Source: Gammaproteobacteria bacterium (lineage in GTDB: Bacteria; Pseudomonadota; Gammaproteobacteria; GCA-001735895). From it: 64,000 nt of DNA. Shown here in pieces: positions 16,350 through 48,467 of this stretch; position 1 is the stretch's first letter, and each line of letters begins with the position of its first letter. The stretch is from positions 5,758 through 69,757 of the forward strand of contig JAOTYD010000006.1 of assembly GCA_029862005.1 (NCBI GenBank), in the 5' to 3' direction. The translations under genes were made by a program, and so were the position numbers. The notes under the pieces are model-generated. The model made no database searches. It was given only the letters and a program-made list of their open reading frames with translations, and had not been told where the DNA came from.

Positions 16350-17765
16350 CTATTCGGTGCGTTCTATTTCGTATTTGCGCATTTTTTCGACGAGGGTTGT
16401 GCGCCGCATTTTGAGCATGGTCGCTGCCCGCGCAACCACGTTATTGGTCTTTGACAAGGCTTGCTCGATCAATGTTATCTCGATATCCGTCAGGTATTTT
16501 TTCATATCGATGCCGTCTGCAGGCAACTCGCTCAGGTCGGGCTCTGCCATCGCCAGCCTGGTTTCGTCCCCGCTAGATTCGAAAACTTCGAGCGCTCCCT
16601 CGCTCTGGTATTTTACGGGTAGATCTTTTGAATCCACGACACCGTGCGGAAACAGGATCGCAAGGCGTTCGATCAGGTTGGCGAGTTCACGCACATTTCC
16701 CGGCCAGGCATACTGTTGCAACATGGATATCGCTTTTTTGCTCAGTCGGACAGAACCGCGATTTTCACGTTCAATTCGAGCAATCATTTCGTGAATCAAT
16801 AGCGGGATATCGGACTGCCGTTCGCGCAGCGGCGGTACCTCGATCGGAAAAACATTGAGTCGATAAAACAGGTCTTCCCGGAATTTGCCCTCGGCAATTA
16901 ACTCTTCGAGACGACGATGGGTTGCGGCAATAACCCGCACATCGGATCTTATCGACTTGTTGCTGCCAACCTTTTCATAGCTGCGCTCCTGCAGTACACG
17001 CAGTAACTTGACCTGCATCGGCAAAGGCATATCCCCGATTTCATCGAGAAACAGTACACCCCCCTCGGCAAGTTCGAAGCGACCCTGGCGCGCACTGATG
17101 GCACCGGTAAATGCGCCCTTTTCATGGCCAAACAGTTCGCTTTCAAGCAAATCTGCCGGGATTGCGCCGCAGTTGATTGGTACGAACGGTTTCTTGCTGC
17201 GTGAAGACTGTGCGTGGACATTACGCGCGATGACTTCCTTGCCGGTACCCGAATCTCCGAGAATCAAGACCGACGCATTGGTGTCGGATACCTGGTCGAT
17301 CATTAAATTAATGCGCTCAATTGAGCTGCTGTTGCCTATTAGCGGCTGGCATTCGCGATTCTGCATGCGGCGTTCGCGCTTATTGTGCTTACGCGCCTGG
17401 TCGAGGACCTGGGATAGAGAATAGTAATCAGACTGGAAACAGAGTCCGGAAACAAAGGGTAGTTCTACCACGATTTCAAGCGCACTCGATTCGGACTTGT
17501 CTGCCAGTAAGATTACCGGATACTGACACTTGTCTTCCTTGTTGCGCTCGAGAAAAAACTTTGAAATATCGTCGCCGCCGATACTGAATATTGCGAGATA
17601 TTCAAATAATTCTCGACGCGGGATATCGGGGAGTTGTTCGGGCGTGATAAGCCTCGCTTCCACTTTGATGAAGCCGAGTACCGCAAGGAAAGAATGTCCA
17701 CGTGTATGGTTGGAATCGACAACAAGCACCTCGTTGCTGTCCTGACCTCCACTATGGTCCTTCAT
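16350..17765 (-). CDS. fleQ: Sigma-54-dependent flagellar master regulator FleQ/FlrA
   Basis: A 471-aa protein with a FleQ-type N-terminal domain, an AAA+ sigma-54 activator domain (GDSGTGKE, GAFTGA) and a C-terminal HTH. Confidence 0.9.
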   Translation of the reverse strand: MKDHSGGQDSNEVLVVDSNHTRGHSFLAVLGFIKVEARLITPEQLPDIPRRELFEYLAIFSIGGDDISKFFLERNKEDKCQYPVILLADKSESSALEIVVELPFVSGLCFQSDYYSLSQVLDQARKHNKRERRMQNRECQPLIGNSSSIERINLMIDQVSDTNASVLILGDSGTGKEVIARNVHAQSSRSKKPFVPINCGAIPADLLESELFGHEKGAFTGAISARQGRFELAEGGVLFLDEIGDMPLPMQVKLLRVLQERSYEKVGSNKSIRSDVRVIAATHRRLEELIAEGKFREDLFYRLNVFPIEVPPLRERQSDIPLLIHEMIARIERENRGSVRLSKKAISMLQQYAWPGNVRELANLIERLAILFPHGVVDSKDLPVKYQSEGALEVFESSGDETRLAMAEPDLSELPADGIDMKKYLTDIEITLIEQALSKTNNVVARAATMLKMRRTTLVEKMRKYEIERTE

Positions 17766-36535: not shown

Positions 36536-36622
36536 GCCGGGGTGGCGGAACTGGTAGACGCGGCGGATTCAAAATCCGCTGGTGGTAACACCTTGGGGGT
36601 TCGAGTCCCCCCCCCGGTACCA
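36536..36622 (+). tRNA. tRNA-Leu(CAA)
   Basis: An 87-nt type II tRNA: GCCGGGGTGGCGGAAcTGGTAGACGC…anticodon loop cuCAAaa…long variable arm…GGGGGTTCGAGTCCCCC…CCCCGGT-A-CCA. Confidence 0.85.
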
Positions 36623-37421
36623 TAGCTATATCCACGATTCTTACGTATTGACGCCGTAGTCCATAACTCCCCTTTTTCTGCTTTAGTCCTTACAGGGACG
36701 GCTTGACCTGGCAATAAAAGTCTTATCAGAAAGAATATTCTGAACTGGACAGGGTGTTATATGGCTCTGCCGAGAATACAGCCAGAAATATATCAATCGG
36801 GTCATGATCGGTTCCTGCTGTTCTACCCTGGGAGTAGCGGAAGAAGGAATAGATGAGCGCCGTGCCGAATAGCCAGAGGGCTACCTGGATCGAGACGACG
36901 GAAACTAGATCAGCCTGTAAGATTGAATTAAACATGGGCCGGCTAGGTTATATCAAGCACTGATAAGTAACAGCGACATATTTCACAAATTATTAATTAC
37001 ATGAGGTTTACACCATAACCAATTGTAAATAATGATTTTTAGCGGGTGTACGAAGCCTGAGCCAAACTCGTGGCATTTAGCAAATATAAAAAGCGCCGCA
37101 CATTCGCGGGGCTTCTATTAATCTCCCGATAAAAGGCAGGATGCTTTTCCTCAAAGCGGGCGTTGCAAATGATTTTGGTGCGTCTGAGAACGGCCAACAG
37201 CAGACTCTCAATTTTTCAGGCATCTGCTATTCAACGCCATATAACAGACTCTCGATTATCGAATTGCTTTCTTGACAGAAAACTAATACCCGATTTCCGA
37301 CTTGTGCATACGTCCAAGGAAACGGTTCAGTATAGTCGGTTTTGTAGCTCACATTTTGAATTAACCTGCCGATAAAGAATCATGCAGGAGGCTCACATCG
37401 TGCTTTTGGTAGGGGAATATC

Positions 37422-38654
37422 ATGTCACTACAACAGGTTAAGATTCAAACAACAGATCTTCAAGAGGGAATGTACGTCACACAGTTGGATCGCCCATGGT
37501 TGGAAACTCCCTACAAAGTTCAGGGGTTTTTGGTTAAAAACCAAAAAGATATAGATAAACTGTTACAACACACTGAATATGTATTTATCGACACGGAACG
37601 AAGCCGGGAAAAACACAATGGATCAGCACAGCCTAGTCGATTACTGACTGAAGAAGAGAAAAAAGAATTTCTCATCGAAAGCAAACCGAGATATTACGAA
37701 GACAAGACCGATTTTAAAAAGGAATTGCCAGTTGCGCATGATAACCACGCGACTTTAAGTGCCACCGCTGAAAACGTCATGGCCGACATTGCCAATAACA
37801 AAAAACTCAACTTGCCGATTTTGAGAAAAGCGGTTAATCCAATGGTGGAAAGTGTGATTCGAAATCCTGAGGCTTTTTCGTGGCTTACCAGAATGAAATC
37901 AAAGGACGACTATACCTATAACCATTCTGTCAGCACTGCAATTTGGTCCGTGGCACTGGGCCGGCAACTTGGATTGCCGAAGCGTGATCTGCAATCTCTT
38001 GGTATGGGCGCATTATTATTCGACGTCGGAAAAATGAAGTTACCCGAAAAACTGATAAACAATCCCAATCGGTTCAACCAGGTAGAATTCAATTTGATAA
38101 AAAAACATGTTGAGTACAGCGTCGACATAGTCCAGTCGATCCCAGGTATCAACGATAACGTTGTTGAAATGGTCGTTACCCACCACGAACGCCATAATGG
38201 CGGGGGTTATCCCGGGGGCTTAAAAGGTAACAAGATTCCTCTATTTGGCAAGATAGCTGGCATCACCGATTGCTATGATGCTCTCACATCGGACCGTGTG
38301 TTTCAGTCCGCAACATCACCCCATGATGCCGTTAGAAAACTGTACGATTGGAGTAATATCGATTTTCAGGCTGAAATCGTTGAACAGTTTATTCAACTGG
38401 TGGGAGTGTATCCGGTTGGCACTATTGTTGAGCTCAGCGATGAGCGCATTGGGATAGTGGTAGCTAACCACCGAGCATTACGCTTGAGGCCCAAAGTAAT
38501 GCTCATTCTCGACAAAGACAAAGAACCATATCCCAAATTCAATGTGATCGACTTGCACTCCATTGAAACCGGAGAGGATGGAAACCCACTGAATATTCTG
38601 AAAAGTATTGATCCTGGTTTGTATGGGATTGATCCTCGAGAATTTTATCTGTAA
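37422..38654 (+). CDS. HD-GYP domain c-di-GMP phosphodiesterase with an N-terminal DUF3391-like region
   Basis: A 410-aa protein. HD (…LFDVGK…) and HHERHNGGGYPGG (GYP) motifs are present. Confidence 0.85.
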   Translation: MSLQQVKIQTTDLQEGMYVTQLDRPWLETPYKVQGFLVKNQKDIDKLLQHTEYVFIDTERSREKHNGSAQPSRLLTEEEKKEFLIESKPRYYEDKTDFKKELPVAHDNHATLSATAENVMADIANNKKLNLPILRKAVNPMVESVIRNPEAFSWLTRMKSKDDYTYNHSVSTAIWSVALGRQLGLPKRDLQSLGMGALLFDVGKMKLPEKLINNPNRFNQVEFNLIKKHVEYSVDIVQSIPGINDNVVEMVVTHHERHNGGGYPGGLKGNKIPLFGKIAGITDCYDALTSDRVFQSATSPHDAVRKLYDWSNIDFQAEIVEQFIQLVGVYPVGTIVELSDERIGIVVANHRALRLRPKVMLILDKDKEPYPKFNVIDLHSIETGEDGNPLNILKSIDPGLYGIDPREFYL

Positions 38655-38662
38655 TCAAGATA

Positions 38663-39967
38663 ATGCCTGAATTTCCCGACAATATTGGTGGCAGAGAGTC
38701 GCTAATTACACAACTGGATGGATTTGTCACAAATCACAAAGCCCAATCAAAGTGCTTTGCACTGTTACTGATCAATATTAAAAATTTTCGACGTTTCAAT
38801 ATGAAGTATGGGTATATGGTAGCGGACCTGGTACTTAGCGAATTTGCTGCCTGTTTGGCAGATTTAACGCGCTCTCAGGATTACGTTGCTCGAGTCGGAA
38901 ATGCCGAGTTCGCTTTGCTATTACCCGCGGTCTTAAATGAAGGCCACGCTAGTCTTGCTGCGATAAAAATTATTGAAAAGCTAAAAGAACCGTTAATGGT
39001 CGGAGAAGATGAGTTTCAGATTCGTGCCGATATTGGGATCGCCCTTTATCCCCAGCATGCTGATGATAGTCAAATGCTTTTCGGTAATGCGGAGTTGGCA
39101 TTGAATGATGCGGGCAATTGTTCAGAGTCCTACGCCATCTATTCGGACGAAGATAACACGATCACTACCTTTGACTGGGATATCGAAGCCGATTTACAAA
39201 AAGCAATTGAAAAAGATCAATTCGAACTTTTTTTCCAGCCCCAAGTATATTTGAGTAACGGGCAGCTTTATGGTGCCGAGGCACTAATACGTTGGAAAAA
39301 CGGGAGTAAAGGATTTATTCGACCCGACCTATTTATACCGGTGGCGGAAAAAAGCGGGCAAATTAACGAGATAACAAAGTGGACCTTGAATGCAGCGTTA
39401 TGGTTTCGTAAATCCTGGTCTAAGGAAATGGATTCGTTAAGTTTAGCGGTCAATATTTCGACAAATATGCTCAGCGACCCCGATTTTGCTGACATGGTAC
39501 GTGGAGCAGTTAGTATTTACGCGGTTGAGTACGAACAATTGACCTTAGAGATCACAGAAAGTGCGCTGGTTGAAGATATGTCTTCCAGTTTCGACACACT
39601 GAATGAACTGAAAGCACTAGGGATCAATATTTCAATAGACGATTTCGGAACAGGATATTCATCGATGGCATATTTCAAAAACATTCCAGCCGACGAATTG
39701 AAAATTGATCAAACATTCATTCGATACATGCTGGAAAACTCAATGGATCAGCATATCGTGCAGACAATTATTCAGATGGCCAAAGGATTTGATCTTACGG
39801 TTGTCGCGGAAGGCATAGAAGATCAGAAAACCTTTGATATGTTATGTGATCTGGAGTGCGACATCGCGCAGGGATATCATCTCGCGAAACCCATGCCGGG
39901 TGATAGTTTCATAGAGTGGATCGATTGCTATACCGCTAACAGGCAAACCGTCGGCAAGCTCAGCTAG
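38663..39967 (+). CDS. GGDEF(degenerate)-EAL domain protein, a likely c-di-GMP phosphodiesterase
   Basis: A 434-aa protein. The GGDEF site is degenerate (RVGNAEF). The EAL domain is intact (EALIRW…DDFGTGYSS…). It starts 8 nt after the HD-GYP stop. Confidence 0.85.
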   Translation: MPEFPDNIGGRESLITQLDGFVTNHKAQSKCFALLLINIKNFRRFNMKYGYMVADLVLSEFAACLADLTRSQDYVARVGNAEFALLLPAVLNEGHASLAAIKIIEKLKEPLMVGEDEFQIRADIGIALYPQHADDSQMLFGNAELALNDAGNCSESYAIYSDEDNTITTFDWDIEADLQKAIEKDQFELFFQPQVYLSNGQLYGAEALIRWKNGSKGFIRPDLFIPVAEKSGQINEITKWTLNAALWFRKSWSKEMDSLSLAVNISTNMLSDPDFADMVRGAVSIYAVEYEQLTLEITESALVEDMSSSFDTLNELKALGINISIDDFGTGYSSMAYFKNIPADELKIDQTFIRYMLENSMDQHIVQTIIQMAKGFDLTVVAEGIEDQKTFDMLCDLECDIAQGYHLAKPMPGDSFIEWIDCYTANRQTVGKLS

Positions 39968-40057
39968 GGATCGACACTGTTGAGACGATATCAACCAAGG
40001 TAGGTAAGTGTGCGATCCAGCTTTTGATCAGATAATTTTTTGAATCGAGGTTTTGCT

Positions 40058-40170
40058 TCGGGTCGGTTATTGTCGCTGATATATTGAGTCTGAGGGGCAG
40101 CTTTCTCCAAATCCGACGCTGAAATGTGTGGCCCGAGCTTCTGAGTTCGGCCACAAGCGGACCCTTGTCA
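40058..40170 (+). repeat. Intergenic repeat copy A of a degenerate ~110-bp family
   Basis: Shares the blocks GGTCGGTTATTGTCGCTGA…GGCAGCTTTCTC…GACGCTGAAA…CTTCTGAGTTCGGCCACAAGCGGAC with copies B, C and E. Confidence 0.6.
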
Positions 40171-40209
40171 CTTCGCATTATGGCTGAGGTATAATGGTTA
40201 CAAGTTTCA

Positions 40210-40647
40210 TTGTTTCTCGAGGATACTGCCATGAATTTTCTAAACCGAATTAATAATTCCAGCAAGTTTCTGGATGGGTATAAGGAATACAGCTACGCGT
40301 TGCTGCGGATCGTAACCGGCTACCTGTTTATATGGCATGGTACGCAAAAGCTACTGGATTTCCCCGCAGCATACCCTTGGGGAGAACCGGATCTGTTGAC
40401 GACGGTAGGCGGTGGTATCGAGATAATTGGTGGCGCACTAATATTGGTTGGCTTCTTTACTCGACCCGCCGCGTTTATCTGCAGTGGCCAAATGGCAGTC
40501 GCTTATTGGATGTTCCATGCGCCGCAGGCTAATCCAGTTTTTCCGATATTAAATGGTGGTGATTTGGCAATAATGTATTCGTTCGTTTTTCTATATATCG
40601 CATGCCGGGGTGCAGGCTGCTGGAGCATCGATTCAGCCCGTTCTTAG
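40210..40647 (+). CDS. DoxX family membrane protein
   Basis: A 145-aa product with four transmembrane helices and DoxX motifs (ALLRIVTGYLFIWHG). An alternative start is the ATG at 40231. Confidence 0.8.
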   Translation: MFLEDTAMNFLNRINNSSKFLDGYKEYSYALLRIVTGYLFIWHGTQKLLDFPAAYPWGEPDLLTTVGGGIEIIGGALILVGFFTRPAAFICSGQMAVAYWMFHAPQANPVFPILNGGDLAIMYSFVFLYIACRGAGCWSIDSARS

Positions 40648-40760
40648 GATACGGATTAGGTCCCAAAGCCTGAGCATCTGTTTTCTTGAAAGCAAACCCT
40701 CAAAAAGCTCAGGTGGGAGGCAATCTTCGGCCAGGAACCGACACTCGTTTGGATCGGTTA
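40648..40760 (+). repeat. Intergenic repeat copy D
   Basis: Reads …CTGTTTTCTTGAAAGC…CTCAAAAAGCTCAGG…CAATCTTCGGCCAGGAACCGACACTCG…GGATCGG. It aligns with copies E and F. Confidence 0.55.
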
Positions 40761-40886
40761 GGACATCCTGAACTGTCGGCATTCTTTACAGACCTCCGAA
40801 AGTTGTAAAAGTTTTTTACAATTATATGGTATGTGGAAATAGAATTTTTTATGGGAAGTTATAATAATCAACGACTTATATTTTTT

Positions 40887-40902
40887 TGGCACGATACATG
40901 CG
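40887..40902 (+). promoter_or_regulatory. Sigma-54 promoter candidate upstream of the PEP-CTERM gene
   Basis: The sequence reads TGGCACgatacATGCG, with a perfect -24 box and GC at -12. It lies about 75 nt upstream of the ATG. Confidence 0.55.
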
Positions 40903-40916
40903 TTTGTATAGTATTG

Positions 40917-40942
40917 TATAACGTTTGTAGCTAAACGTTATA
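40917..40942 (+). promoter_or_regulatory. Perfect 26-bp palindrome in the predicted leader of the PEP-CTERM gene
   Basis: The sequence reads TATAACGTTT-gtagct-AAACGTTATA. Four TTGTA direct repeats are phased around it. Confidence 0.5.
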
Positions 40943-40976
40943 TCTTGTAGAAAGCTAAAATTAAGAGATCTAATCC

Positions 40977-41585
40977 ATGAAAATATTTCGCAACAAACAG
41001 AAAAAACATCGGGCATCGCCTTCCGGGTGGAAACGATTACTGGTGGTACCTATTTTTTTGACGATGTCGGCATCGCTTCCGAATTTAGCGAATGCGATGG
41101 CTATTACTGGCTTTGGTGGGCAAATATTTGGAACGGGTGGAAACGTTGTTGTTGACATCTTGCCTGCAAGTTCTGGATACACCAACGATATCAACCTTTA
41201 TTTCGCATATCCGGACCTGTCCATTGCAACGTTCATCGGTATCGACAATAATCTGGCATCCGTCGATCTGGGGTCGTTCGCCCTCGGTACCGAACTTGTT
41301 TTCGGGATCGTTAATGATCCAGGTGATATTTTCGTGATGGGCGATGCCTCGCGTAACCCAGACAATTTAATTCACGCAAATGTATTCAACACTGTAACTG
41401 GCGCTGGTTTTGTAGAATCATGGATTGTTGGTTTTGAAGATCTCCTCGGTGGTGGTGACAATGATTTCAACGACGCCTTTATTCGGGTGAACCTAGCAGC
41501 TGCTGTTCCCGAACCATCAGTTATCGCTTTATTTGCAGCGGGTCTCCTTGGTTTAGGTTTCGCTCGCCGGAGAATGCGTAGCTAA
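40977..41585 (+). CDS. PEP-CTERM sorting-domain protein with a DUF4114-like domain; putative exosortase substrate
   Basis: A 202-aa protein with a signal peptide. The C-terminus reads VPEPSVIALFAAGLLGLGFARRRMRS, which is PEP, then a transmembrane segment, then an Arg-rich tail. The motif FEDLLGGGDNDFNDAFIRV is present. Confidence 0.85.
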   Translation: MKIFRNKQKKHRASPSGWKRLLVVPIFLTMSASLPNLANAMAITGFGGQIFGTGGNVVVDILPASSGYTNDINLYFAYPDLSIATFIGIDNNLASVDLGSFALGTELVFGIVNDPGDIFVMGDASRNPDNLIHANVFNTVTGAGFVESWIVGFEDLLGGGDNDFNDAFIRVNLAAAVPEPSVIALFAAGLLGLGFARRRMRS

Positions 41586-41610
41586 TTAAAAATAAAGCGT
41601 TACCGAATAA

Positions 41611-41636
41611 GCCATCTCAATTGAGGTGGCTTTTTT
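41611..41636 (+). terminator. Rho-independent terminator after the PEP-CTERM gene
   Basis: A GCCAUCUCAAUUGAGGUGGC hairpin is followed by UUUUUU. Confidence 0.7.
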
Positions 41637-41650
41637 ATGGGGGTCCGTTT

Positions 41651-41780
41651 AGGGTCGGTCTCTGCCGCTGAGTTTTAGGATTTCAGAGTCTGCTTTCCTG
41701 TAAGCTGACACTCAAAGTCAGAGCTTCAGCGACGTTCTTCGGCCAGGAAGAGACGCTCAGCAATGAAAAAATTGGATCGG
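41651..41780 (+). repeat. Intergenic repeat copy E
   Basis: Reads GGGTCGGTCTCTGCCGCTGAG…CTGCTTTCCTGTAAGC…CTCAAAGTCAGAG…CTTCGGCCAGGAAGAGACGCTCAG…GGATCGG. Confidence 0.6.
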
Positions 41781-41782
41781 TC

Positions 41783-41884
41783 GAAGAGGTTACCGGTGCG
41801 ATATTGTATTTGGCTTCCTCGGACTCAGGCTTCACCACAAGGATTGCTTTACCGATGGACGGTGGTGCGACAGCAGGGGGCTAA
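41783..41884 (+). pseudogene. Orphan 3' fragment of a short-chain dehydrogenase/reductase (SDR) gene
   Basis: The frame reads EEVTGAILYLASSDSGFTTRIALPMDGGATAGG*, a typical SDR C-terminus (…LFLASD.S.YITG….DGG). The upstream catalytic portion is missing. It lies directly after repeat E. Confidence 0.6.
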
Positions 41885-41959
41885 GAGTTTGGTGCGTCTC
41901 ATAGCTGGGGCGTGCAGCCAGACAATTTCACTTATCACAATTTCAATCGCTCAATAACA

Positions 41960-42040
41960 GACGCTCGTTAAGCTCAGTTAAACTTCGACAATCGGCCACA
42001 TTCGGAGCTTTCTATTTTCCGGGATGCCTGTGTCTCGCTG
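41960..42040 (+). repeat. Partial or scrambled copy (H) of the intergenic repeat family
   Basis: Contains GACGCTC…TCGGCCACA…GAGCTTTCT blocks in a different order. Confidence 0.35.
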
Positions 42041-42163
42041 TGATAGAATGCATTCGGACTGTAAAAGCACCTGGTAGGTGCGCAGTTTCTACATCAATAC
42101 TGCATTGATGGACATTCATAAATACGGGTGTTTCCACACCCTACAAAAATTGAGGAGCTAAAT

Positions 42164-43144
42164 ATGAATTTATTACGTGGACGATGTCTCAGAACATTAC
42201 TTGTCGCTACCTGCTTTACCCTGTTTTCTGTTTCAGGGGTATTTGCGGCGGATAGCAACAAACCGATTCGAATCCCCTTGAAGAATTGGTCCAGCCAACT
42301 TGTTATGGCTCACGTAATCGGTGGCATGTTTGAAAGCATGGGCAACAATGTTGAATATGTACCGGTAGACAATCAAACCAGTTTCGAAGCCGTACGCAAT
42401 GGCGACATCACACTCGTCCATGAAGTCTGGCAATCCACCATGCAAAACGCTTATTACAATGCGATGGAAAAAGGCGGATTGATCGACGCGGGCACACACG
42501 AAGCTGCCACGCTGGAAGAAATGGGCGTACCGACCTGGGTAATTGAAAAGAACCTGTGCCCGGGCCTGCCGAATTGGGAAGCTCTGAAAAATTGCCACGA
42601 AGTTTTCGCAACCCCGGATTCCGGTGGCAAAGGACGCTGGTTGGAAGGCCCGCAAAGCTGGCACGGTGACGTAATGCCGAATCGAGTCAAAGGGCTGGGA
42701 TTGGATGATAACTGGACGGTTAAGTTTGCCGGTGGTGCCGATGCACTGTGGACCGAACTCAAGGCCGCTGAGAAAGAAGGCCGGGGAACTATCATATTCA
42801 ACTGGTCGCCAAACTTTACCGATGCGTCCGGATTTACCTTTATTGAATTCCCGCCGTACTTCGATGGTTGCCGAATTGCCGATGGTGGCACGCTAGAAAC
42901 AACTGGTTGTGGTTCACCACCGGGTTGGCTGAAAAAAGGTGCACACTACAAGTTTGCCAAGACGCACCCGAAAGCCTATGCAGCCTTCACCCGCCTCTCA
43001 TTTACCACACCACAGATCGGTCAAATGGCCGCACTGGTTGACGTTGACGGATTAACCGTTGAAGAAGCCGGCAAGAAATGGCTGGCCGATAACGAAGCCA
43101 TCTGGAAGCCGTGGACCGCAACAACCCTGGGGCATGGGAACTAA
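42164..43144 (+). CDS. Periplasmic substrate-binding protein of the glycine betaine/choline-binding (OpuAC/ProX-like) type. The start is revised to the ATG at 42164.
   Basis: A signal peptide (MNLLRGRCLRTLLVATCFTLFSVSGVFA) follows the RBS GAGGAG. The mature part has an OpuAC-like fold. No cognate permease or ATPase genes are adjacent. Confidence 0.7.
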   Translation: MNLLRGRCLRTLLVATCFTLFSVSGVFAADSNKPIRIPLKNWSSQLVMAHVIGGMFESMGNNVEYVPVDNQTSFEAVRNGDITLVHEVWQSTMQNAYYNAMEKGGLIDAGTHEAATLEEMGVPTWVIEKNLCPGLPNWEALKNCHEVFATPDSGGKGRWLEGPQSWHGDVMPNRVKGLGLDDNWTVKFAGGADALWTELKAAEKEGRGTIIFNWSPNFTDASGFTFIEFPPYFDGCRIADGGTLETTGCGSPPGWLKKGAHYKFAKTHPKAYAAFTRLSFTTPQIGQMAALVDVDGLTVEEAGKKWLADNEAIWKPWTATTLGHGN

Positions 43145-43540
43145 GCTAACTATCTGTACAGGTGGTTGACGTTAAAAAAGGCGTTATCCGTGAAAATTCA
43201 CTTGGCGCCCCCTCCGTTATAGGTGGGGGCACTGATTGCTATCTCTAATCACGCCAGATGTTTTCAATCATTTCGGTTTTCTCCGAAGATGATTGGATTT
43301 GCGGCGTTTCAAATTGAATGTTTGAGACTGACCGAGAATCGTTGTCGCGATTGGTATTTTGCATCACGGAGTATCCCAATTCACAACTACCGACCACATT
43401 ACGTTCACGAGCCGTATGGTATTAATCAAAGGACGAGAATTAATAACAGTAGGTGAATAAACAAAGGTACTAACGAAAATAATCACTTTGAGATAAGTGA
43501 TTCGCCATAGGGTAAATCCTTATATATCAGGTGTCTGAAA

Positions 43541-43650
43541 AGGATCGTAAATTGTCGCTGAATTGTCGAGATTAAGCGGCAGCTTTCTCGTGAGCAGACG
43601 CTGAAAAATACTAATCGGGCTTCAGAGAACGGCCAGGAACGGTCACTGGA
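43541..43650 (+). repeat. Intergenic repeat copy B
   Basis: Reads GGATCGTAAATTGTCGCTGAAT…GGCAGCTTTCTCG…GACGCTGAAAAA…CTTCAGAGAACGGCCAGGAACGGTC. Confidence 0.6.
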
Positions 43651-43795
43651 TTCCAACCTGTATCACTCAAGATATTTACAACATCTCAGAGTTGGTACCT
43701 GTTTCGATAATGCATATTGAGTGGTGATGGCCTAAATAAAGATTACTTTTACCTGTAGACTCATGCTTGAGTTCACCTATTGGTAGGAGAGTAAT

Positions 43796-44656
43796 ATGAG
43801 TGATATTACGGTTATCGGTCTTGGAGTGATGGGTTCGGCACTAGCACAAACGCTCCTACAATCCGGATACAAGGTTACCGTATGGAATCGGACCCCCAAT
43901 AAAGCTGCTGATCTGGCAGATCGAGGAGCGATTACAGCAGTTTCATGCTCCGAAGCTATAGCCGCCAGCCCATTGATTGTTATCTGCATCAAATCCCACA
44001 GCGATACCCGCCAACTACTCGAGTCCGCAGAAAACCTGAAATCCAAAAATATAATCGAGCTAAGCACCGGCAGTGCGCCCGAGGCTGAGTCACTCGCAGA
44101 ATGGGTACGTAGCGAAGGGGCTGGATGCTTAATCGGAATGATTTGCACTTTTCCGCGTGATATCGGTAACGAGGATTCGACGATTGTTACCGTGGGAGAC
44201 GAGGCTCTATGGGAACAATCCCAAAAAATGTTGAAGACCCTTGCCGGGAAATCAACTTACATCGGAGATAATATCGGATCTCTGGCGATTCTTTATAGCG
44301 CGTTGTTTTTACCGCGTCAGGGATTTATGTTCGGGATGATATACGGCGCTCTACTTTGTAAAAAAGCCAGCCTGTCTATGCAAACCTATGTTGAGCTAAT
44401 GCCGCTTACAATCAAGGTAGTGAATGACTACTACGACGTTTTTGCCTCTTCCGTGCTTTCCGACAATTATTCAGACCCACAAGCATCCATAGACACGTAC
44501 ATAGCCGCTTTTGCAGATACGCTTGAGTCGTTTCGTAATCACGATGTTAACGATGAACTGCCTAAATTGATGGCTAGATTGCTCGATCAGGGTGCTAATG
44601 CTGGTCTGGGTGATAAACAGATAACCTCTCTGATTAATGTGTTGAGCAATGAATAA
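43796..44656 (+). CDS. NAD(P)-binding oxidoreductase, 6-phosphogluconate/3-hydroxyisobutyrate dehydrogenase-like
   Basis: A 286-aa protein with the Rossmann motif ITVIGLGVMGSALAQTL and a dehydrogenase C-terminal domain. Confidence 0.75.
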   Translation: MSDITVIGLGVMGSALAQTLLQSGYKVTVWNRTPNKAADLADRGAITAVSCSEAIAASPLIVICIKSHSDTRQLLESAENLKSKNIIELSTGSAPEAESLAEWVRSEGAGCLIGMICTFPRDIGNEDSTIVTVGDEALWEQSQKMLKTLAGKSTYIGDNIGSLAILYSALFLPRQGFMFGMIYGALLCKKASLSMQTYVELMPLTIKVVNDYYDVFASSVLSDNYSDPQASIDTYIAAFADTLESFRNHDVNDELPKLMARLLDQGANAGLGDKQITSLINVLSNE

Positions 44657-44659
44657 CCC

Positions 44660-44772
44660 AGGCATGCCAAAATCACTCTAGGCGAATCCCCTAAGCGGAC
44701 TCTCGTAAAACCTTGTTGGGGGACAATCTTCGGCCAGAATCGGACGCTCAAAAAAACAAATGCTAGATCGGA
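44660..44772 (+). repeat. Intergenic repeat copy F
   Basis: Reads …TCTCGTAAAACCTTGTTGGGGGACAATCTTCGGCCAGAATCGGACGCTC…AGATCGG. Confidence 0.55.
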
Positions 44773-44838
44773 TATGCGAACCTTAAACGATATTTGTAAC
44801 CAACTGTTAAAATTCGATAGTAGAATAATGAAACTCGA

Positions 44839-45366
44839 TTGTTGATCGAAGATTATAATTGGCGAGTCGGTGAAGTGATGAGAAAAATGGAGCGACATGC
44901 GCGATTTAGGAGGTTTCTAAGCGATATCTCCGTTCACACACCATTTACCAAAATGGTGATTCTATTAGCTGTGCTGTGGCTAACGTTTTCTGCCGGTGTG
45001 TATCTCGCCGAGCGAGGTATAGAAGCAACATCTATCGATTCTTATGGGAAAGCATTGTATTGGGGGATAGCCGCCTTTTCTACAGCGGGAATCGCCGATG
45101 CACCGATCTCTGGTGCAGCGCAAGTGGTTGGTGGTCTTTGGATAGTCCTTGGTTCGGTTTTGTTCTTCGGGACCATCGTGGCGACCGTTACGACCTATTT
45201 TATGAGACCAATGCAGCGCCCACATAGGAAGATCATTGATACGATAGAATATAACCTCGAGCAATTAGATAACCTGACGATCGACGAACTCGATTTATTA
45301 AGAGAAACAACTGACACGCTAATTGTGCATGTCGAACGCTTAAAGAAAAAACAATCAAGAGAATAA
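44839..45366 (+). CDS. Two-TM ion-channel-like (Ion_trans_2 / K+-channel-like) protein with a non-canonical pore sequence
   Basis: A 175-aa product with two transmembrane helices flanking a pore-helix-like segment (YWGIAAFSTAGIADAP). The start could be an internal Met at 44878. Confidence 0.55.
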   Translation: MLIEDYNWRVGEVMRKMERHARFRRFLSDISVHTPFTKMVILLAVLWLTFSAGVYLAERGIEATSIDSYGKALYWGIAAFSTAGIADAPISGAAQVVGGLWIVLGSVLFFGTIVATVTTYFMRPMQRPHRKIIDTIEYNLEQLDNLTIDELDLLRETTDTLIVHVERLKKKQSRE

Positions 45367-45439
45367 TCGAAATCTAACGATGGTTTAGATGGTTTGTATT
45401 ATTTTTGGCGGTTCAAGCGGGATTTTCCAAGCCTACCGC

Positions 45440-45570
45440 GAATGATGGAAATGGGTTGTTAGCTCCCCCTAAAATCACAATTCTGAACGCCGGCTTTCCC
45501 GATAGCGGGCCCTCAATTTCAGAACTTCAGAGGCGACCTTGCGCCAGAAGCGGACCCTTAGGGCGGCATT
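45440..45570 (+). repeat. Intergenic repeat copy G
   Basis: Reads …TTTCAGAACTTCAGAGGCGACCTTGCGCCAGAAGCGGACCC…. Confidence 0.45.
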
Positions 45571-45669
45571 AAGTTAACTGTCAATATAATTCACATTTTA
45601 TAAAAAGACTCTGTTTGATTTCCTGAGTTACAATCACAATCCGAAAATCAAACAAAAATCGAAAGTGAC

Positions 45670-46998
45670 ATGGTCAATGAGTCTACGGAAACGGTCAGTA
45701 CAGAAGAAAATCTAGATCCCATTGCTATCAGCGAGGAGCAGTTCAATCGCGCATCGTATCACGTCAAAGGTCTTAAAAGAGGCTTGGTGGAGTTCCTGAA
45801 AAAACCCAAGCGCGTGAATATTATAAATTTCCCGGTCGAGATGGACGATGAGAGCGTGCAAAGTTTCCAGGGCTTCCGCGTACAGCACAATCGCGTATTC
45901 GGTCCCGGCAAAGGCGGAATCCGATATCACCCGGATGTCACGATGGAAGACGTCATTTCGCTGGCCAAGCTGATGACCTGGAAGTGCGCGCTGGTTAATG
46001 TCCCCTTCGGAGGCGCCAAGGGTGGCCTCGTTTGCGATCCCAAGAAGCTGAGTGAAAAGGAACTGCGTCGTATCACACGTCGTTATACCTCCGAGCTGTA
46101 CGACGAGCTTGGGCCACATCAGGACATCCCCGCGCCCGACCTCTATACCAATGAGCAGACCATGGCCTGGATATACGACACCTATGATGTTTTGCATCCG
46201 GGTTTCAACAACCGGCCGGTGGTGACCGGCAAACCTATCGAAATGGGTGGTTCCTATGGCCGCTACGAGGCGACTGGCAACGGTTGCCTGTTCTCCACGC
46301 AACGCTTTTTGTCCAAGGCGCTAATCCCGGATCATCAGGATGTTACAGGAATGCGCATCGCCATCCAGGGTTTTGGTGACGTCGGTGCAGTCGCAGCGAA
46401 CGCTTTTCATCGTCAGGGCGCAAAGATTATCGCGGTCAGTGACAGTAAGGGCGGAATCTATAGCGAAGCGGGATTGAATCCGGAGGATGTAGAAGGTTTC
46501 AAGGGTCGGCAGGGAACCGTGGTCGGATTGAAAGATACCATGACCATCACCAACGAGGAACTACTAGAACTGGAGTGCGACATTCTGTTGCCGGCTGCGC
46601 TCGGAAACCAGATTCATGCAGGCAACGCGTCCAATATCAAGGCCAGTCTGGTCGTTGAGGGCGCAAACAATCCGACTACGCCGCTGGCCGACCGGATTTT
46701 ACAGGAACGTGGAATTCATGTGTTGCCAGACATCCTCGTTAACGCCGGTGGTGTCACGGTCAGCTATTACGAATGGGTGCAGAACCAAGTTAACGAGCAA
46801 TGGGACTACGATACCACCACCGAAAAGATGCATTCCAAAATTTATGCAGCCGTGGACACGGTGTTTGACCGCTGGCAGTCGTTCGTCGTCGGTGAAGAAT
46901 CAACGCGGAATCACACGCCTGATTTTCGCACAATCGCCCTGATGATCGCCATTGAACGTGTCGCGCATGCGACCTTGTTACGCGGAATATGGCCATGA
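45670..46998 (+). CDS. gdh: Glu/Leu/Phe/Val-family amino-acid dehydrogenase, a likely glutamate dehydrogenase
   Basis: A 442-aa protein. The catalytic Lys region is KGGIRYHPDV…VPFGGAKGG, and the NAD(P) motif is GFGDVGA. Confidence 0.88.
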   Translation: MVNESTETVSTEENLDPIAISEEQFNRASYHVKGLKRGLVEFLKKPKRVNIINFPVEMDDESVQSFQGFRVQHNRVFGPGKGGIRYHPDVTMEDVISLAKLMTWKCALVNVPFGGAKGGLVCDPKKLSEKELRRITRRYTSELYDELGPHQDIPAPDLYTNEQTMAWIYDTYDVLHPGFNNRPVVTGKPIEMGGSYGRYEATGNGCLFSTQRFLSKALIPDHQDVTGMRIAIQGFGDVGAVAANAFHRQGAKIIAVSDSKGGIYSEAGLNPEDVEGFKGRQGTVVGLKDTMTITNEELLELECDILLPAALGNQIHAGNASNIKASLVVEGANNPTTPLADRILQERGIHVLPDILVNAGGVTVSYYEWVQNQVNEQWDYDTTTEKMHSKIYAAVDTVFDRWQSFVVGEESTRNHTPDFRTIALMIAIERVAHATLLRGIWP

Positions 46999-47023
46999 AT
47001 CAATAGGACGGGTGTCCATTTTG

Positions 47024-47125
47024 GGTCGTAAATCGTCGCTGAATAACATAGCTTGAGCGTCTCCTTTCTCGTACGCAGATTCTCATAAAAAATCATAGCG
47101 GGAGGTAATATTCGGCCGATAGCTG
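47024..47125 (+). repeat. Intergenic repeat copy C
   Basis: Reads GGGTCGTAAATCGTCGCTGAATAAC…CTCCTTTCTCGTACGCAGA…TATTCGGCCGATAGC. Confidence 0.55.
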
Positions 47126-47177
47126 CTATTTGTTTTATCTGGAGATGACTATTTGATAGTGCAGGTTGTCAGCCTGA

Positions 47178-48152
47178 TTACCGAGTAACCTTTATGTTGC
47201 TGATCAACTCAAATTTATCGGGGATATTGCCATCAATGTCTTTGAAGTAACAGTTTGCATGGTTTGGTTTGCCATTCACAAAGAATGTGCAAAAGAGAGC
47301 ACCAAAGTTGGCGCCCTGATCAAAAGTATAGACAGATGCCCACCACGGATCATTGTGACGATATTGTCTGCTTATGCTTAGACCCCCCAATCCTGAGACG
47401 AAGGCGAAGCTTTTTCCCTCTTCGATTACCATCTTATTCGCGGTCGAAGCTATGCGCTGCTTTTTAAAGCTGCTCATCAGATGTGTCCGTGAATATGAGT
47501 GTGTGTGACCCGTAGCCACGATTGCTCCCCCCTCGCGGCAGACTCGAAAGGGCTTCCAACCTACCTGGCTACCTTTCACCCCAACCTGCATCTTTTTTTG
47601 AGACTTGTGCCAGGAACAAATCCTCCATATGGAGTCAGTTTGAGCTAACTGTTTGCGTATATAAGCAACGTGATCGGGATTGTTCTTCGTGATGCTTGTT
47701 CCAATGCCCGAAAGAATGAAGAACAATCCTCGAAAAGTGCATACAGATTGCACGCCAAGATCACCACCGCAATTTATCTCGTCTATTCTGTCCAAACGGG
47801 CTTGCAACTTATCTTGATAGCCATCAGGTGAGTACCAAAGAATATCGTGGTTGCCGATGGATGCCAGATACGGGAAGTCCTCCCCAAGAATGTCTGTTAT
47901 AAAGTTATCCCATCTAGTGGGATTGTTTTCGTAATCCAGATCCCCCTGATGCAACACTAAATCAGCACCCTCATCCTTGATCAATCGAAGTACCGCCCTG
48001 GAGTCACTGTTTATCCCCTGATCACCAATAAATGCGACGGTTACGGACTGCAATGATGCCAGGTTCTGAGAGCTGGCCCCGTTGAGCAAAGCGCAGTCGA
48101 CAAAGACTACTGCCAGTATAAAACAGACTGCGGCCGTTACTCGATTTCTCAT
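47178..48152 (-). CDS. Secreted calcineurin-like metallophosphoesterase, purple-acid-phosphatase-like
   Basis: A 324-aa protein with a signal peptide and GDQG…GDLDY…GNHD motifs. Confidence 0.75.
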   Translation of the reverse strand: MRNRVTAAVCFILAVVFVDCALLNGASSQNLASLQSVTVAFIGDQGINSDSRAVLRLIKDEGADLVLHQGDLDYENNPTRWDNFITDILGEDFPYLASIGNHDILWYSPDGYQDKLQARLDRIDEINCGGDLGVQSVCTFRGLFFILSGIGTSITKNNPDHVAYIRKQLAQTDSIWRICSWHKSQKKMQVGVKGSQVGWKPFRVCREGGAIVATGHTHSYSRTHLMSSFKKQRIASTANKMVIEEGKSFAFVSGLGGLSISRQYRHNDPWWASVYTFDQGANFGALFCTFFVNGKPNHANCYFKDIDGNIPDKFELISNIKVTR

Positions 48153-48467
48153 TATTTTAAATTTACTCGGATGCCCACCGGGTTACCATTTTGTAAAACA
48201 GGCACTAGATTAGTCGAAACGGGGAAATAATTAAAATAAGCGAGTGTCTCAGTTGGTGTTATCAGACTCCCTTTTGTAAAATCTCAGTGTCTGCTTCCGC
48301 ATTTGTGGGGCATTCAATGCAAGTACCAAATTTAGTACATCATAGGGCAGCAGATGCCAATATATGGCAACATTTAAACGGCGCTTAGAATCCGGCATAA
48401 AAAAGCGTTCGCTATCTACGTTAAATAACGGTTATCTGCAAGCCATAGGGCGTATTTCGAAAATCAC

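Follow-up and report, generated by a model that had tools for sequence, protein, structure and literature searches.

Evaluating a 64,000-nt stretch of Gammaproteobacteria DNA (lineage GCA-001735895; contig JAOTYD010000006.1, positions 5,758 to 69,757; hereafter the window), we found an 11.8-kb island beside a tRNA gene that is built of single-gene units, each ending in a ~125-bp repeat at which related bacteria have swapped genes. While this architecture is that of an integron cassette array, the repeat lacks the features that define an integron site and no recombinase was found nearby. We therefore interpret the island, with a probability of about one half, as a cassette array built at a new kind of recombination site by an unidentified enzyme acting in trans.

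A repeat array within a tRNA-adjacent island

The initial annotation had described eight copies (A to H) of a degenerate repeat separating seven to eight unrelated genes, and we first assessed whether this repeat family exists using a profile built only from copies found in other contigs. The observation held up in full, as all eight copies were recovered on the + strand at or within about 20 nt of where they had been placed, with seven scoring E values between 1e-13 and 1e-25 and copy H, the weakest of the eight, scoring about 1e-6. The search also revealed two copies that had been missed, namely copy X (E 7.2e-6) upstream of the HD-GYP gene and a marginal left-half copy (E 0.12) that is supported by comparison with contig L227 (L numbers denote the contigs compared with the window). 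No other match in the 64 kb had E < 0.6, such that all ten copies lie in 11.8 kb and none in the other 52 kb, for which simple arithmetic gives a chance under uniform scatter of (0.184)^10, about 5e-8. The shared blocks initially pointed out (GGGTCG..GTCGCTGA, GCTTTCTC, GACGCTSAAA and CTTCGGCCAGGA.CGGAC) are the conserved blocks of the family, and Pfam searches confirmed the gene content. The features of the island are as follows, with profile matches given in parentheses.

36536–36622 (+): tRNA-Leu (CAA), the left boundary of the island, identified by ARAGORN and Rfam
36623–48467: the 11.8-kb low-GC island holding the whole repeat array
37145–37211 (+): copy X, short form (model positions about 59–126), degenerate (37145–37210, E 7.2e-6)
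37422–39967 (+): unit 1, an HD-GYP gene (37422–38654) plus a GGDEF-EAL gene (38663–39967)
40046–40168 (+): copy A, full length (40052–40166, E 6.8e-25)
40210–40647 (+): DoxX gene, the same module being found by blastn at 94% identity in L230 and 83% in L127, with other neighbours
40665–40748 (+): copy D, short form (model positions 43–126), its left part being DoxX-specific sequence shared with L230 (40667–40747, E 9.1e-19)
40977–41585 (+): DUF4114/PEP-CTERM gene, followed by an intrinsic terminator at about 41608–41640, its stem seen in weak Rfam alignments
41637–41760 (+): copy E, full length, the most palindromic copy in the window, with a reverse-strand self-match of 9.4e-14 (41639–41759, E 6.5e-24)
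41768–41884 (+): orphan 3' end of an SDR gene (last 38 codons), of which the last 34 residues match adh_short_C2 positions 203–236 of 236 (E 4e-4), starting within 8 nt of the 3' end of copy E
41950–42006 (+): copy H, short form, degenerate (41950–42006, E 2.8e-6)
42128–43144 (+): solitary OpuAC-type substrate-binding protein gene
43528–43650 (+): copy B, full length (43530–43648, E 5.7e-24)
43796–44656 (+): NAD_binding_2/RedAm-like oxidoreductase gene
44687–44751 (+): copy F, short form (model positions 62–126) (44687–44750, E 2.8e-13)
44839–45366 (+): ion-channel (K-channel-like) gene
45439–45561 (+): copy G, full length (45440–45560, E 2.5e-14)
45670–46998 (+): glutamate dehydrogenase gene (gdh; Glu/Leu/Phe/Val dehydrogenase in Pfam) with its own conserved promoter region, flanked by repeats also in L004 (88% nt identity) but with other neighbours, and without a repeat in L003, L005 or L007
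47008–47133 (+): copy C, full length, with a degenerate right arm (47010–47125, E 2.1e-19)
47178–48152 (–): metallophosphoesterase gene, the one unit of the island in opposite orientation, the same module in L227 (84%) also being flanked by repeat copies
48241–48297 (+): marginal left-half copy (GAGTGTCTCAGTTGG...CAGTGTCTGCTT; E 0.12), the corresponding place in L227 holding a clear copy

To assess how the island arose, we compared it with relatives by blastn synteny and alignment, revealing an insertion between tRNA-Leu and a choline-kinase gene in which the repeat sits at every gene boundary. Synteny with relatives L244, L242 and L240 ends 0–70 nt past the 3' end of the tRNA, such that L244 has the empty site with the tRNA 3' end and the choline-kinase gene 337 nt apart, L242 has a 1.8-kb insert with partial copies at the same place, and L240 (92% identity) diverges 70 nt past the tRNA. 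GC content likewise drops by about 8 points in the island, from 0.52–0.56 in the flanks to 0.43–0.47.

Distribution and linkage of the repeat family

A search beyond the window for further arrays, for copies beside an intI gene and for unit-wise variation had been named in advance as a way of judging the cassette reading, and we next looked for the family elsewhere. This revealed about 370 further unique copies in 135 contigs of marine and estuarine sediment Gammaproteobacteria, where neighbouring copies are co-oriented (155 same : 12 opposite, 93%), the median unit is 1188 bp and 68% of units hold one ORF of at least 90 aa. Random dispersal irrespective of gene boundaries, which would have counted against a cassette array, was not what we saw, nor was gene content fixed between contigs, as modules of 0.4–3 kb shared at 85–99% identity lie between different neighbours (e.g., DoxX in the window and L230, gdh in the window and L004, and L140 versus L218 at 98%). 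The element is absent from about 150 kb of core-genome sequence of the window and relatives.

The family consensus is CTGAGTGTCTGTTTTGGGTCGTTAACTGCCGCTGATTTATCAAATTTGAGGGTCTGTTTTCTCCAAAGCAGACGCTCAAAAAACCTTGTTGGGCGGCAATCTTCGGCCAGGAGCGGACACTCAG, with a short form of about 65 bp that keeps only positions about 60–126. At the sequence level it is a quasi-palindrome carrying four copies of a motif, TGAGnGTCyG, arranged as two direct then two inverted, together with near-invariant blocks GGGTCG, TTTCTC, AG.GAC.CT and CGGCCA. Conservation is position-specific, with some positions 95–99% conserved next to others at 28–40%, which together with the absence of compensatory pairing fits recognition of sequence by a protein.

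To evaluate where units join, we compared pairs of elements sharing only one flank. In 30 pairs (21 module families) sharing only the upstream flank, element identity exceeds background up to about position 105 and is at background from position 112, whereas in 26 pairs (17 families) sharing only the downstream flank it is at background to position 121 and is 0.86–0.95 from position 124. Positions 1 to about 111 thus travel with the upstream gene and the downstream gene joins at positions 112–123, although the linkage sets are small and partly redundant, the variable positions 112–121 are linked to neither flank, and pairs below about 95% identity cannot separate decay of orthologous non-coding sequence from exchange. 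Not every junction falls in this zone, as the downstream break is at position 76 in L140/L218 (98% identity) and at about position 65 in DoxX. Most contigs are also short metagenome assemblies, and some joins at repeats could be assembly chimeras. Within full copies, segment V1 is linked to the centre (r 0.34), but V2 and V1 are not linked to the right arm (r 0.05 and 0.01). The truncated SDR gene starting within 8 nt of the 3' end of copy E is as expected from a junction formed at that end.

Tests of an integron origin

The initial annotation had proposed either an integrase-less attC-like cassette array or a MITE-like family, and we find this interpretation supported in part, with the cassette-array half holding up better than expected and the attC-like half failing on the defining features. 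Core sites had not been obvious by eye, and we found no RYYYAAC..GTTRRRY pair on either strand of the window array and no AAC/GTT signal in 370 copies, the arms reading CTGAGYGTC / GACRCTCAG instead. Covariation between paired positions had been set out beforehand as the mark of an attC-like hairpin, but RNAalifold predicts no pairs, no compensatory base-pair changes occur and pairing equals the shuffle control. The hairpin is a property of the consensus only, single copies folding no better than shuffles, and about 40% of copies lack the whole left arm. Gene orientation relative to the site is only weakly biased (73:42).

We also searched for a recombinase. A tblastn screen with IntI1 and XerC sequences as queries found no tyrosine recombinase in the window, and no IntI occurs in 0.78 Mb of repeat-bearing contigs, where the only finds were an IS91-linked tyrosine recombinase with a resolvase fragment beside it in L155, the same recombinase in L202, and a tyrosine-recombinase fragment in L235. 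The one intact recombinase scores below the integron-integrase cut-off and sits beside an IS91 transposase. No recombinase sat next to any of the 10 array edges tested, out of 17 listed.

Interpretation and alternative explanations

To summarize the biology, we interpret the 36.6–48.5 kb segment as a flexible genomic island made of gene cassettes, each unit being one gene, occasionally two or more, usually with its own promoter and followed by one copy of this lineage-specific element. Our analyses demonstrate that units have been joined to one another at a narrow zone near the 3' end of the element (just after CGGCCA), with the next gene beginning a few bases before the element's end and neighbouring sites keeping one orientation whatever the orientation of the gene. 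What we infer from this is conservative site-specific recombination (excision and insertion of units) by a recombinase that reads the motif and blocks as sequence and is encoded elsewhere in the genome, whereas our data show neither the enzyme nor circular intermediates, nor whether the DNA reacts as a duplex or as a folded strand. Against this reading stand the failure to find a recombinase in the window or next to the array edges tested, the junctions outside the main zone and the weak bias in gene orientation.

Of the alternatives, all of which we consider unlikely, the best surviving is a selfish, non-autonomous palindromic element (MITE, REP/REPIN or ERIC-like) copied into intergenic DNA by a transposase encoded elsewhere, one candidate being an HUH/Y1 enzyme acting on single-stranded DNA that would give a strand-biased orientation, with the synteny breaks being secondary rearrangements at its ends. 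In its favour, the consensus is a long imperfect palindrome with inverted outer arms that folds strongly, individual copies look like decayed relics (MFE close to shuffles, no compensatory changes), discrete subfamilies of the variable segments suggest several master copies, copy number in the lineage is high, and the + strand folds better than the – strand in 88 of 112 copies. However, there is no base-composition signal beyond either end, so no target site or target-site duplication, and no case was found of the same two flanks with and without the element. No RAYT or IS200/IS605 TnpA was found in the contigs either, though this is a weak test. Further, copies are confined to an island rather than dispersed, their orientation is not random, and conservation is strongly position-specific rather than a uniform decay. 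Finally, the same downstream gene is joined at the same element position to different, non-orthologous elements and different upstream genes in 17 module families, which insertion of an element cannot produce. The MITE-like option is therefore not supported.

Slightly less likely is that no dedicated enzyme is involved, the repeats acting as portable stretches of homology or fragile palindromes at which general recombination, replication slippage or SbcCD-type cleavage reshuffles neighbouring genes. This would fit the failure to find a recombinase in the contigs and array edges searched and the junctions at positions about 65 and 76, and for the two modules where both ends could be read the upstream break lies 3' of the downstream break, as independent single crossovers at varying positions would give. 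Yet copies are only about 55–60% identical overall, and while the longest well-conserved block is the centre (positions 59–80), linkage breaks at 112–123 next to a 6-bp invariant block that is far too short for RecA-type exchange. Co-orientation of 93% is not expected from random exchange among dispersed repeats, and selection on individual positions in every copy needs a reader of the sequence.

Less likely again is a host cis-acting element (e.g., a binding platform for a nucleoid or regulatory protein, a transcriptional insulator, or a 3'-UTR RNA) that belongs to each gene unit and is carried along when genes are transferred by any route. The element is inherited with the upstream gene, specific positions including the apical TTTCTC are near-invariant, the conserved T21-G108 wobble and better folding of the + strand fit an RNA, and each downstream gene has its own promoter just after the element. 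Conversely, gene orientation relative to the element is nearly mixed while element orientation along an array is uniform, a terminator precedes copy E, and there is no Rfam match and no covariation. Its absence from core-genome sequence means that it is not a general gene-boundary signal, and random transfer would not place breakpoints in one 12-nt zone.

The least likely is an ordinary CALIN with true attC sites of a sedentary chromosomal integron, recombined as folded bottom strands by an IntI encoded elsewhere in the genome, since although co-oriented sites less than 4 kb apart without an integrase, one site per unit with unrelated genes, a gene fragment and a solitary transporter component, junctions near the 3' end of a site belonging to the upstream gene, and a site length (about 65–125 bp) within the attC range all fit, the core sites and compensatory pairing are lacking, no IntI occurs in the 0.78 Mb searched, copies without the left arm cannot form the R or L boxes, the better-folding strand is the top strand, and the units carry their own promoters.

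We also compared the array with the closest known systems. CALINs and sedentary chromosomal integrons with species-specific attC families such as Vibrio VCRs likewise possess co-oriented sites of about 60–130 bp, one per unit of about 1 kb, with unrelated, often orphan genes, sites inherited with the upstream gene and joined a few bases before their 3' end, sites resembling each other within a lineage, and gene content varying between relatives. Here, however, there is no R''/R' core, conservation is of sequence rather than structure, a left-arm-less short form is common, genes with their own promoters face either way (63% co-oriented), no IntI or attI was seen at any array edge examined, and copies at about 55–60% identity are far more diverged than VCR-type sites.

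The pdif (Xer-dependent) modules of Acinetobacter plasmids share genes bounded by short recombination sites that have inverted binding arms around an asymmetric spacer, modules found in different contexts and, in our reading, a recombinase encoded in trans by the host. The pdif sites are 28 bp, related to dif, and alternate in orientation around each module, whereas here the sites are 65–125 bp, unrelated in sequence to dif and in direct orientation, with the junction near the 3' end rather than at the central 12-6-12 palindrome. ERIC/IRU, REP/BIME and other intergenic palindromic repeats share imperfect palindromes of about 125 bp that are strictly intergenic, lineage-specific, in many copies and with subfamilies, but those families are dispersed around the chromosome and do not mark synteny breaks unit by unit, while the copies here are confined to islands, co-oriented and at module junctions. 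Lastly, tRNA-adjacent islands built by repeated integration (e.g., tycheposon-type islands of Prochlorococcus) share a hypervariable island directly 3' of a tRNA gene with an empty site in a relative, and L242 has a partial repeat of the tRNA 3' end at the far edge of its insert. The window, in contrast, has no integrase and no tRNA-end repeat, and its internal unit boundaries are the 125-bp element, which has no similarity to the tRNA.

The repeat family and its genomic setting

To determine whether the repeat between the genes of this array is real, we first searched the window with a profile built from the copy coordinates of the initial annotation, which recovered seven strong + strand copies and weak ones at 37.1 and 41.95 kb. 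Because that test is circular, we rebuilt the profile from 101 full-length copies found in other contigs, with no window rows, and this independent search returned the following copies, all on the + strand:

Copy A, E 6.8e-25
Copy B, E 5.7e-24
Copy E, E 6.5e-24
Copy C, E 2.1e-19
Copy D, E 9.1e-19
Copy G, E 2.5e-14
Copy F, E 2.8e-13
Copy H, 41950-42006, E 2.8e-6
Copy X, 37145-37210, E 7.2e-6, missed by the initial annotation
Marginal left-half copy, 48241-48297, E 0.12

Nothing else in the 64 kb scores better than E 0.6, and the initial observation of one repeat copy per gene boundary is thus real. Pfam confirms the gene list that had been proposed (DoxX, a PEP-CTERM protein, an SDR 3' fragment, a solitary OpuAC-like binding protein, an NAD-binding oxidoreductase, a K-channel-like protein and gdh). 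The SDR 3' fragment is the last 38 codons of an SDR, matching adh_short_C2 positions 203-236 of 236, and it begins within 8 nt of the end of copy E.

We next evaluated where the copies lie. The source is a metagenome-assembled Gammaproteobacterium (a 184.7-kb contig), of whose genome only 64 kb was examined here, and the copies sit in a segment with GC 0.43-0.47 between flanks at 0.52-0.56 that starts right after tRNA-Leu(CAA) at 36536-36622. Relatives found through queA show that this segment is an insertion. In the relative L244 (82% nt identity) the tRNA 3' end and the choline-kinase gene are 337 nt apart, whereas in the window they are 11.8 kb apart (36622 and 48468), and a further relative, L240 (92% identity), diverges from the window 70 nt past the tRNA. 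The relative L242, from the same sample, has a 1.8-kb insert there (L242 8037-9812) that holds partial copies of the repeat and ends with CCTCCCAGGTACCA, a 14-nt partial direct repeat of the tRNA 3' end followed by the sequence that follows the tRNA in the empty-site relative L244; this looks like the scar of an integrase-mediated insertion, yet no integrase remains. The locus is therefore a hypervariable, tRNA-adjacent island. The features of a tRNA-targeting integrative island were not found in the window itself, as there is no recombinase and no second copy of the tRNA-Leu 3' end, allowing up to 3 mismatches, the partial repeat existing only in L242. Inside the island, between the tRNA and copy X, a small - strand ORF of about 60 aa (36700-36935) looks like a membrane protein when read by eye and is not annotated by any search done here.

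To survey the family more broadly, we scanned species-representative genomes and metagenome contigs, each with an exact pattern, and followed these scans with profile searches, which together gave at least 135 contigs with at least about 370 unique copies, nearly all from marine or estuarine sediment Gammaproteobacteria. Neighboring copies have the same orientation in 155 cases and opposite orientation in 12 (93% co-oriented), the start-to-start distance has a median of 1188 bp (IQR 820-1693), and 68% of units hold one ORF of at least 90 aa. The arrays thereby satisfy the array criterion of a CALIN, namely at least two sites in the same orientation less than 4 kb apart with no integrase nearby, with ten + strand copies in 11.8 kb in the window. 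By contrast with integron cassettes, whose ORFs are mostly promoterless and co-oriented with the site, the dominant ORF of a unit is co-oriented with the element in only 73 of 115 clear cases and opposite in 42. Dispersal of the copies irrespective of gene boundaries had been named in advance as an outcome that would argue against a cassette array; instead, all window copies lie in 18% of the window and none was found in about 150 kb of core-genome sequence of the window and its relatives.

By far the most recurrent cargo of the arrays is a large (about 1100 aa) protein family found in 29 of the 135 loci (e.g., locus L077, 2317-5691, - strand), whose N-terminus we read by eye, without a Pfam scan, as a SAM domain followed by an adenylate/guanylate cyclase.

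Anatomy of the element and comparison with attC sites

The consensus of the element (model positions 3-126) is CTGAGTGTCTGTTTTGGGTCGTTAACTGCCGCTGATTTATCAAATTTGAGGGTCTGTTTTCTCCAAAGCAGACGCTCAAAAAACCTTGTTGGGCGGCAATCTTCGGCCAGGAGCGGACACTCAG. It is a quasi-palindrome in which a motif, TGAGnGTCyG, occurs at positions 4-13 and 49-58 and inverted at 70-79 and 117-126, and its center is a 12-6-12 inverted repeat (GAGCGTCTGTTT TCTCCA AAGCAGACGCTC). The consensus folds into a rod (DNA -30.7 kcal/mol, z -7; RNA -66.9 kcal/mol, z -9.6). Conservation along the element is very uneven: GGGTCG (18-23), TTTCTC (60-65; T64 is 82%), A69, G70, G73, A74, C75, C77, T78, G95, C99, CGGCCA (106-111), C116, G118 and C120 are at 87-99%, while adjacent positions are at 28-45%. 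About 40% of copies start at positions about 45-62 and lack the whole left arm, and D, F, H and X are of this short kind. A few copies are left halves only, and one copy in contig L227 (12786-13005) carries about 75 nt inserted exactly at its apical TTTCTC loop, such that the profile reports it as two half copies on opposite strands; some of the '-' calls and 5'-truncated calls of the profile are really left halves or this one copy with an insertion in its loop.

Covariation of base pairs across the aligned copies had been proposed at the outset as the check for an attC-like hairpin, and we therefore asked whether the structure is maintained in the copies themselves. Window copies fold no better than shuffles (z -1.1 to +1.25), RNAalifold on 106 full copies predicts no pair at all, and for the rod structure 71.3% of cells pair against 71.5 ± 0.4% when partners are shuffled among sequences, with a covariation score that also equals the control. 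Variation at paired positions is therefore independent, and the palindrome is a property of the sequence consensus that is not maintained as a structure, so we dropped the ssDNA-hairpin and structured-RNA readings as the primary explanation. The + strand folds better than the - strand in 88 of 112 copies, and a T opposite a G in the GGTCG/CGGCC stem (element positions 21 and 108; e.g., window 43545 and 43632) is kept in 94 of 106 copies; if any strand folds, it is the top strand, the opposite of attC.

We then assessed the remaining defining features of attC sites, whose core sites had not been obvious by eye in the initial annotation. No RYYYAAC...GTTRRRY pair at 50-150 nt exists on either strand in 36.6-47.3 kb, and the position table of 370 copies shows CTGAGYGTC...GACRCTCAG, with no base preference outside positions 3-126 and in particular no GTT or AAC. 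The short form cannot make R or L boxes. Rfam 15 has no matching family, as a gathering search of the window and E-value searches of the region and of five good loci gave only a tRNA and chance hits at a terminator; the attC covariance models of IntegronFinder and HattCI were not applied to the copies. The terminator is a clean intrinsic one at 41608-41640, which follows the PEP-CTERM gene, precedes copy E and is the cause of the weak Phe_leader and BTnc231 hits. By eye, we saw no sigma-54 promoter and no LexA box. On the defining features, the element is not attC.

To seek a cognate enzyme, we screened the window and 0.78 Mb of repeat-bearing contigs. By tblastn with IntI1 and XerC, using query sequences that, like the other recombinase queries, were not retrieved from a database, there was no recombinase in the window and no integron integrase in the 0.78 Mb, with hits only in contigs L155 and L202 and a fragment in contig L235. 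The only intact tyrosine recombinase (292 aa) scores below the NCBIfam cut-offs for integron integrase and for Xer; in L155 (1-2709) it sits side by side with a resolvase fragment and an IS91-family transposase, and in L202 (328-1248) the same recombinase abuts a repeat copy, which is probably an IS91-type element that landed in an array. Screens with RAYT, IS608 TnpA and Hin gave as their only hit the resolvase fragment beside the IS91 unit, and since whole genomes were not searched, the absence of RAYT and IS608 TnpA hits in 0.78 Mb leaves undecided whether a cognate transposase is present in the same genome. Of the 17 array edges listed, Pfam analysis of one adjacent ORF at each of ten revealed only housekeeping genes (alanine racemase, a PLD-type enzyme, HlyD, LysR and the like), and clustering of all 1826 ORFs of the contigs, intended to find a recurrent enzyme, revealed no enzyme family that recurs.

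Gene modules and junction positions

Having found that the element lacks the defining features of attC, we asked whether it nevertheless marks a cassette boundary. An all-against-all comparison of the contigs revealed many modules of 0.4-3 kb that are shared at 85-99% identity and whose neighbors differ. DoxX is shared by the window and contigs L230 (94%) and L127 (83%), the metallophosphoesterase recurs in L227 between repeat copies, and gdh is shared with contig L004 (88%), where it has a repeat on both sides but other neighbors, while in L003, L005 and L007 it has no repeat. The initial annotation had described the ORFs as promoterless-looking, whereas conserved promoter-like regions, read from the sequence and not assayed, follow the element upstream of gdh and DoxX. 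The region upstream of gdh (…CAGACYCYGYYTGATTTCCTGAGTTACAATSRCAAWCC…; window 45590-45670, L004 3650-3730, L003 9920-10000) is conserved in relatives with and without the repeat, and gdh therefore brings its own promoter or leader and is not a promoterless cassette.

A first mapping of breakpoints by BLAST ends and change points was misleading, as conserved arms let alignments run on and, at 85-90% gene identity, orthologous non-coding sequence has decayed to family background. We therefore replaced it with linkage profiles conditioned on the flanks, in which, for pairs of copies that share only one flank, we evaluated how far into the element identity exceeds the family background. For 30 pairs (21 module families) sharing the upstream flank, identity is raised by 0.1-0.3 in every bin up to positions 101-105 and is at background from position 112. 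For 26 pairs (17 families) sharing the downstream flank, identity is at background up to position 121, intermediate at 121-123, and 0.86-0.95 from position 124. Manual alignments agree for five modules. The linkage sets are small and partly redundant, and most contigs are short metagenome assemblies in which repeats can cause chimeric joins. Within full copies, the left variable segment is linked to the center (r 0.34), whereas neither variable segment is linked to the right arm (r 0.05 and 0.01).

The element up to about CGGCCA is therefore inherited with the upstream gene, the next unit begins a few bases before the element's end, and the same downstream unit is found joined, at the same place, to different elements and different upstream genes. 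This is the architecture of an integron cassette, in which the site belongs to the cassette of the upstream ORF and the crossover lies near the site's 3' end, and insertion of a mobile repeat cannot produce it. There are exceptions: in contigs L140/L218 (98% identity) the downstream break is at position 76, just after the GAC of the third motif, in DoxX the downstream break is near the apex, and variable positions 112-121 are linked to neither side.

To test for behavior of a mobile repeat directly, we looked by chained all-against-all blastn for the same two flanks with and without a solitary element, and found no such case among the contigs for this element. A different insertion of about 111 nt, flanked by an 8-bp direct repeat TTGAGGTG, does distinguish two otherwise 99.8%-identical contigs (L088 1754-1856 versus L185 7628-7635) and is probably an unrelated MITE with a target-site duplication.

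Interpretation and closest known systems

We consider the analysis to have demonstrated that a clustered, co-oriented, lineage-specific element sits at every unit boundary of an inserted island, that units are exchanged between genomes, that there is a preferred junction zone at positions 112-123 of 126, and that selection acts on particular bases rather than on pairing. From these observations we infer, with a probability of roughly 0.5, that a recombinase that reads these bases joins units there and acts in trans; neither the enzyme, nor any intermediate, nor the form of the DNA that reacts was observed. The earlier interpretation as an integrase-less, attC-like cassette array or a MITE-like family is thus partly supported, in that the cassette architecture holds while the attC-like site does not and the expected behavior of a MITE was not seen.

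Among alternatives, a selfish palindromic repeat with secondary rearrangements is unlikely, given that there is no filled and empty polymorphism among the contigs compared, no target-site signal, and neither dispersal nor random orientation of the copies in the sequence examined. Exchange by general recombination or palindrome fragility is about as doubtful, and a host cis-element merely carried along with genes is less likely still. A true CALIN is improbable.

Compared with CALINs and chromosomal integrons, the arrays have the same logic and the same linkage of site to gene, but a different site. In pdif modules, a host recombinase likewise acts in trans and modules occur in varied contexts, but the site and the orientation rule differ: pdif modules are bounded by 28-bp dif-like sites (11-6-11) in alternating orientation, whereas here the element is dissimilar to the dif consensus, the sites are in direct orientation, and the junction is not at the center. 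ERIC/REP-type repeats are of similar size and palindromy but have a different distribution. We found no description of this element in Rfam or in full-text literature searches, though this is weak evidence of absence.

A more far-reaching reading, which we hold only tentatively, is that marine benthic Gammaproteobacteria carry a second, integron-independent gene-cassette system, in which a recombinase that is not IntI and is encoded away from the arrays would recognize a sequence-defined site of 65-125 bp (motif TGAGnGTCyG plus CGGCCA) and exchange single-gene units at positions 112-123 of that site, building co-oriented arrays in tRNA-adjacent islands. Integrons are so far the only well-understood system that stockpiles and reshuffles single genes as cassettes, and all detection tools look for IntI and for attC structure. 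If this reading is right, a site with a different sequence logic does the same job without an adjacent integrase, cassette-type genome plasticity would be broader than integron surveys suggest, a large pool of environmental accessory genes would be invisible to current tools, and a new recombinase-site pair would be waiting to be found. The sites also explain why these islands break metagenome assemblies into contigs of a few kb, and even on the less novel readings the family is a useful marker of flexible islands in an abundant, uncultured sediment lineage.

Elsewhere in the window, two - strand ORFs 2643 bp apart (13752-15077 and 16350-17765) share two other repeat families, D3 and D4, at 71-77% identity. 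We guess that they are sigma-54 activator paralogues, for which the only support is indirect, as the Sigma54_activat gene region of L244 matches both ORFs at 66% in blastn and the window ORFs themselves were not scanned against Pfam. They are unrelated to the intergenic repeat.
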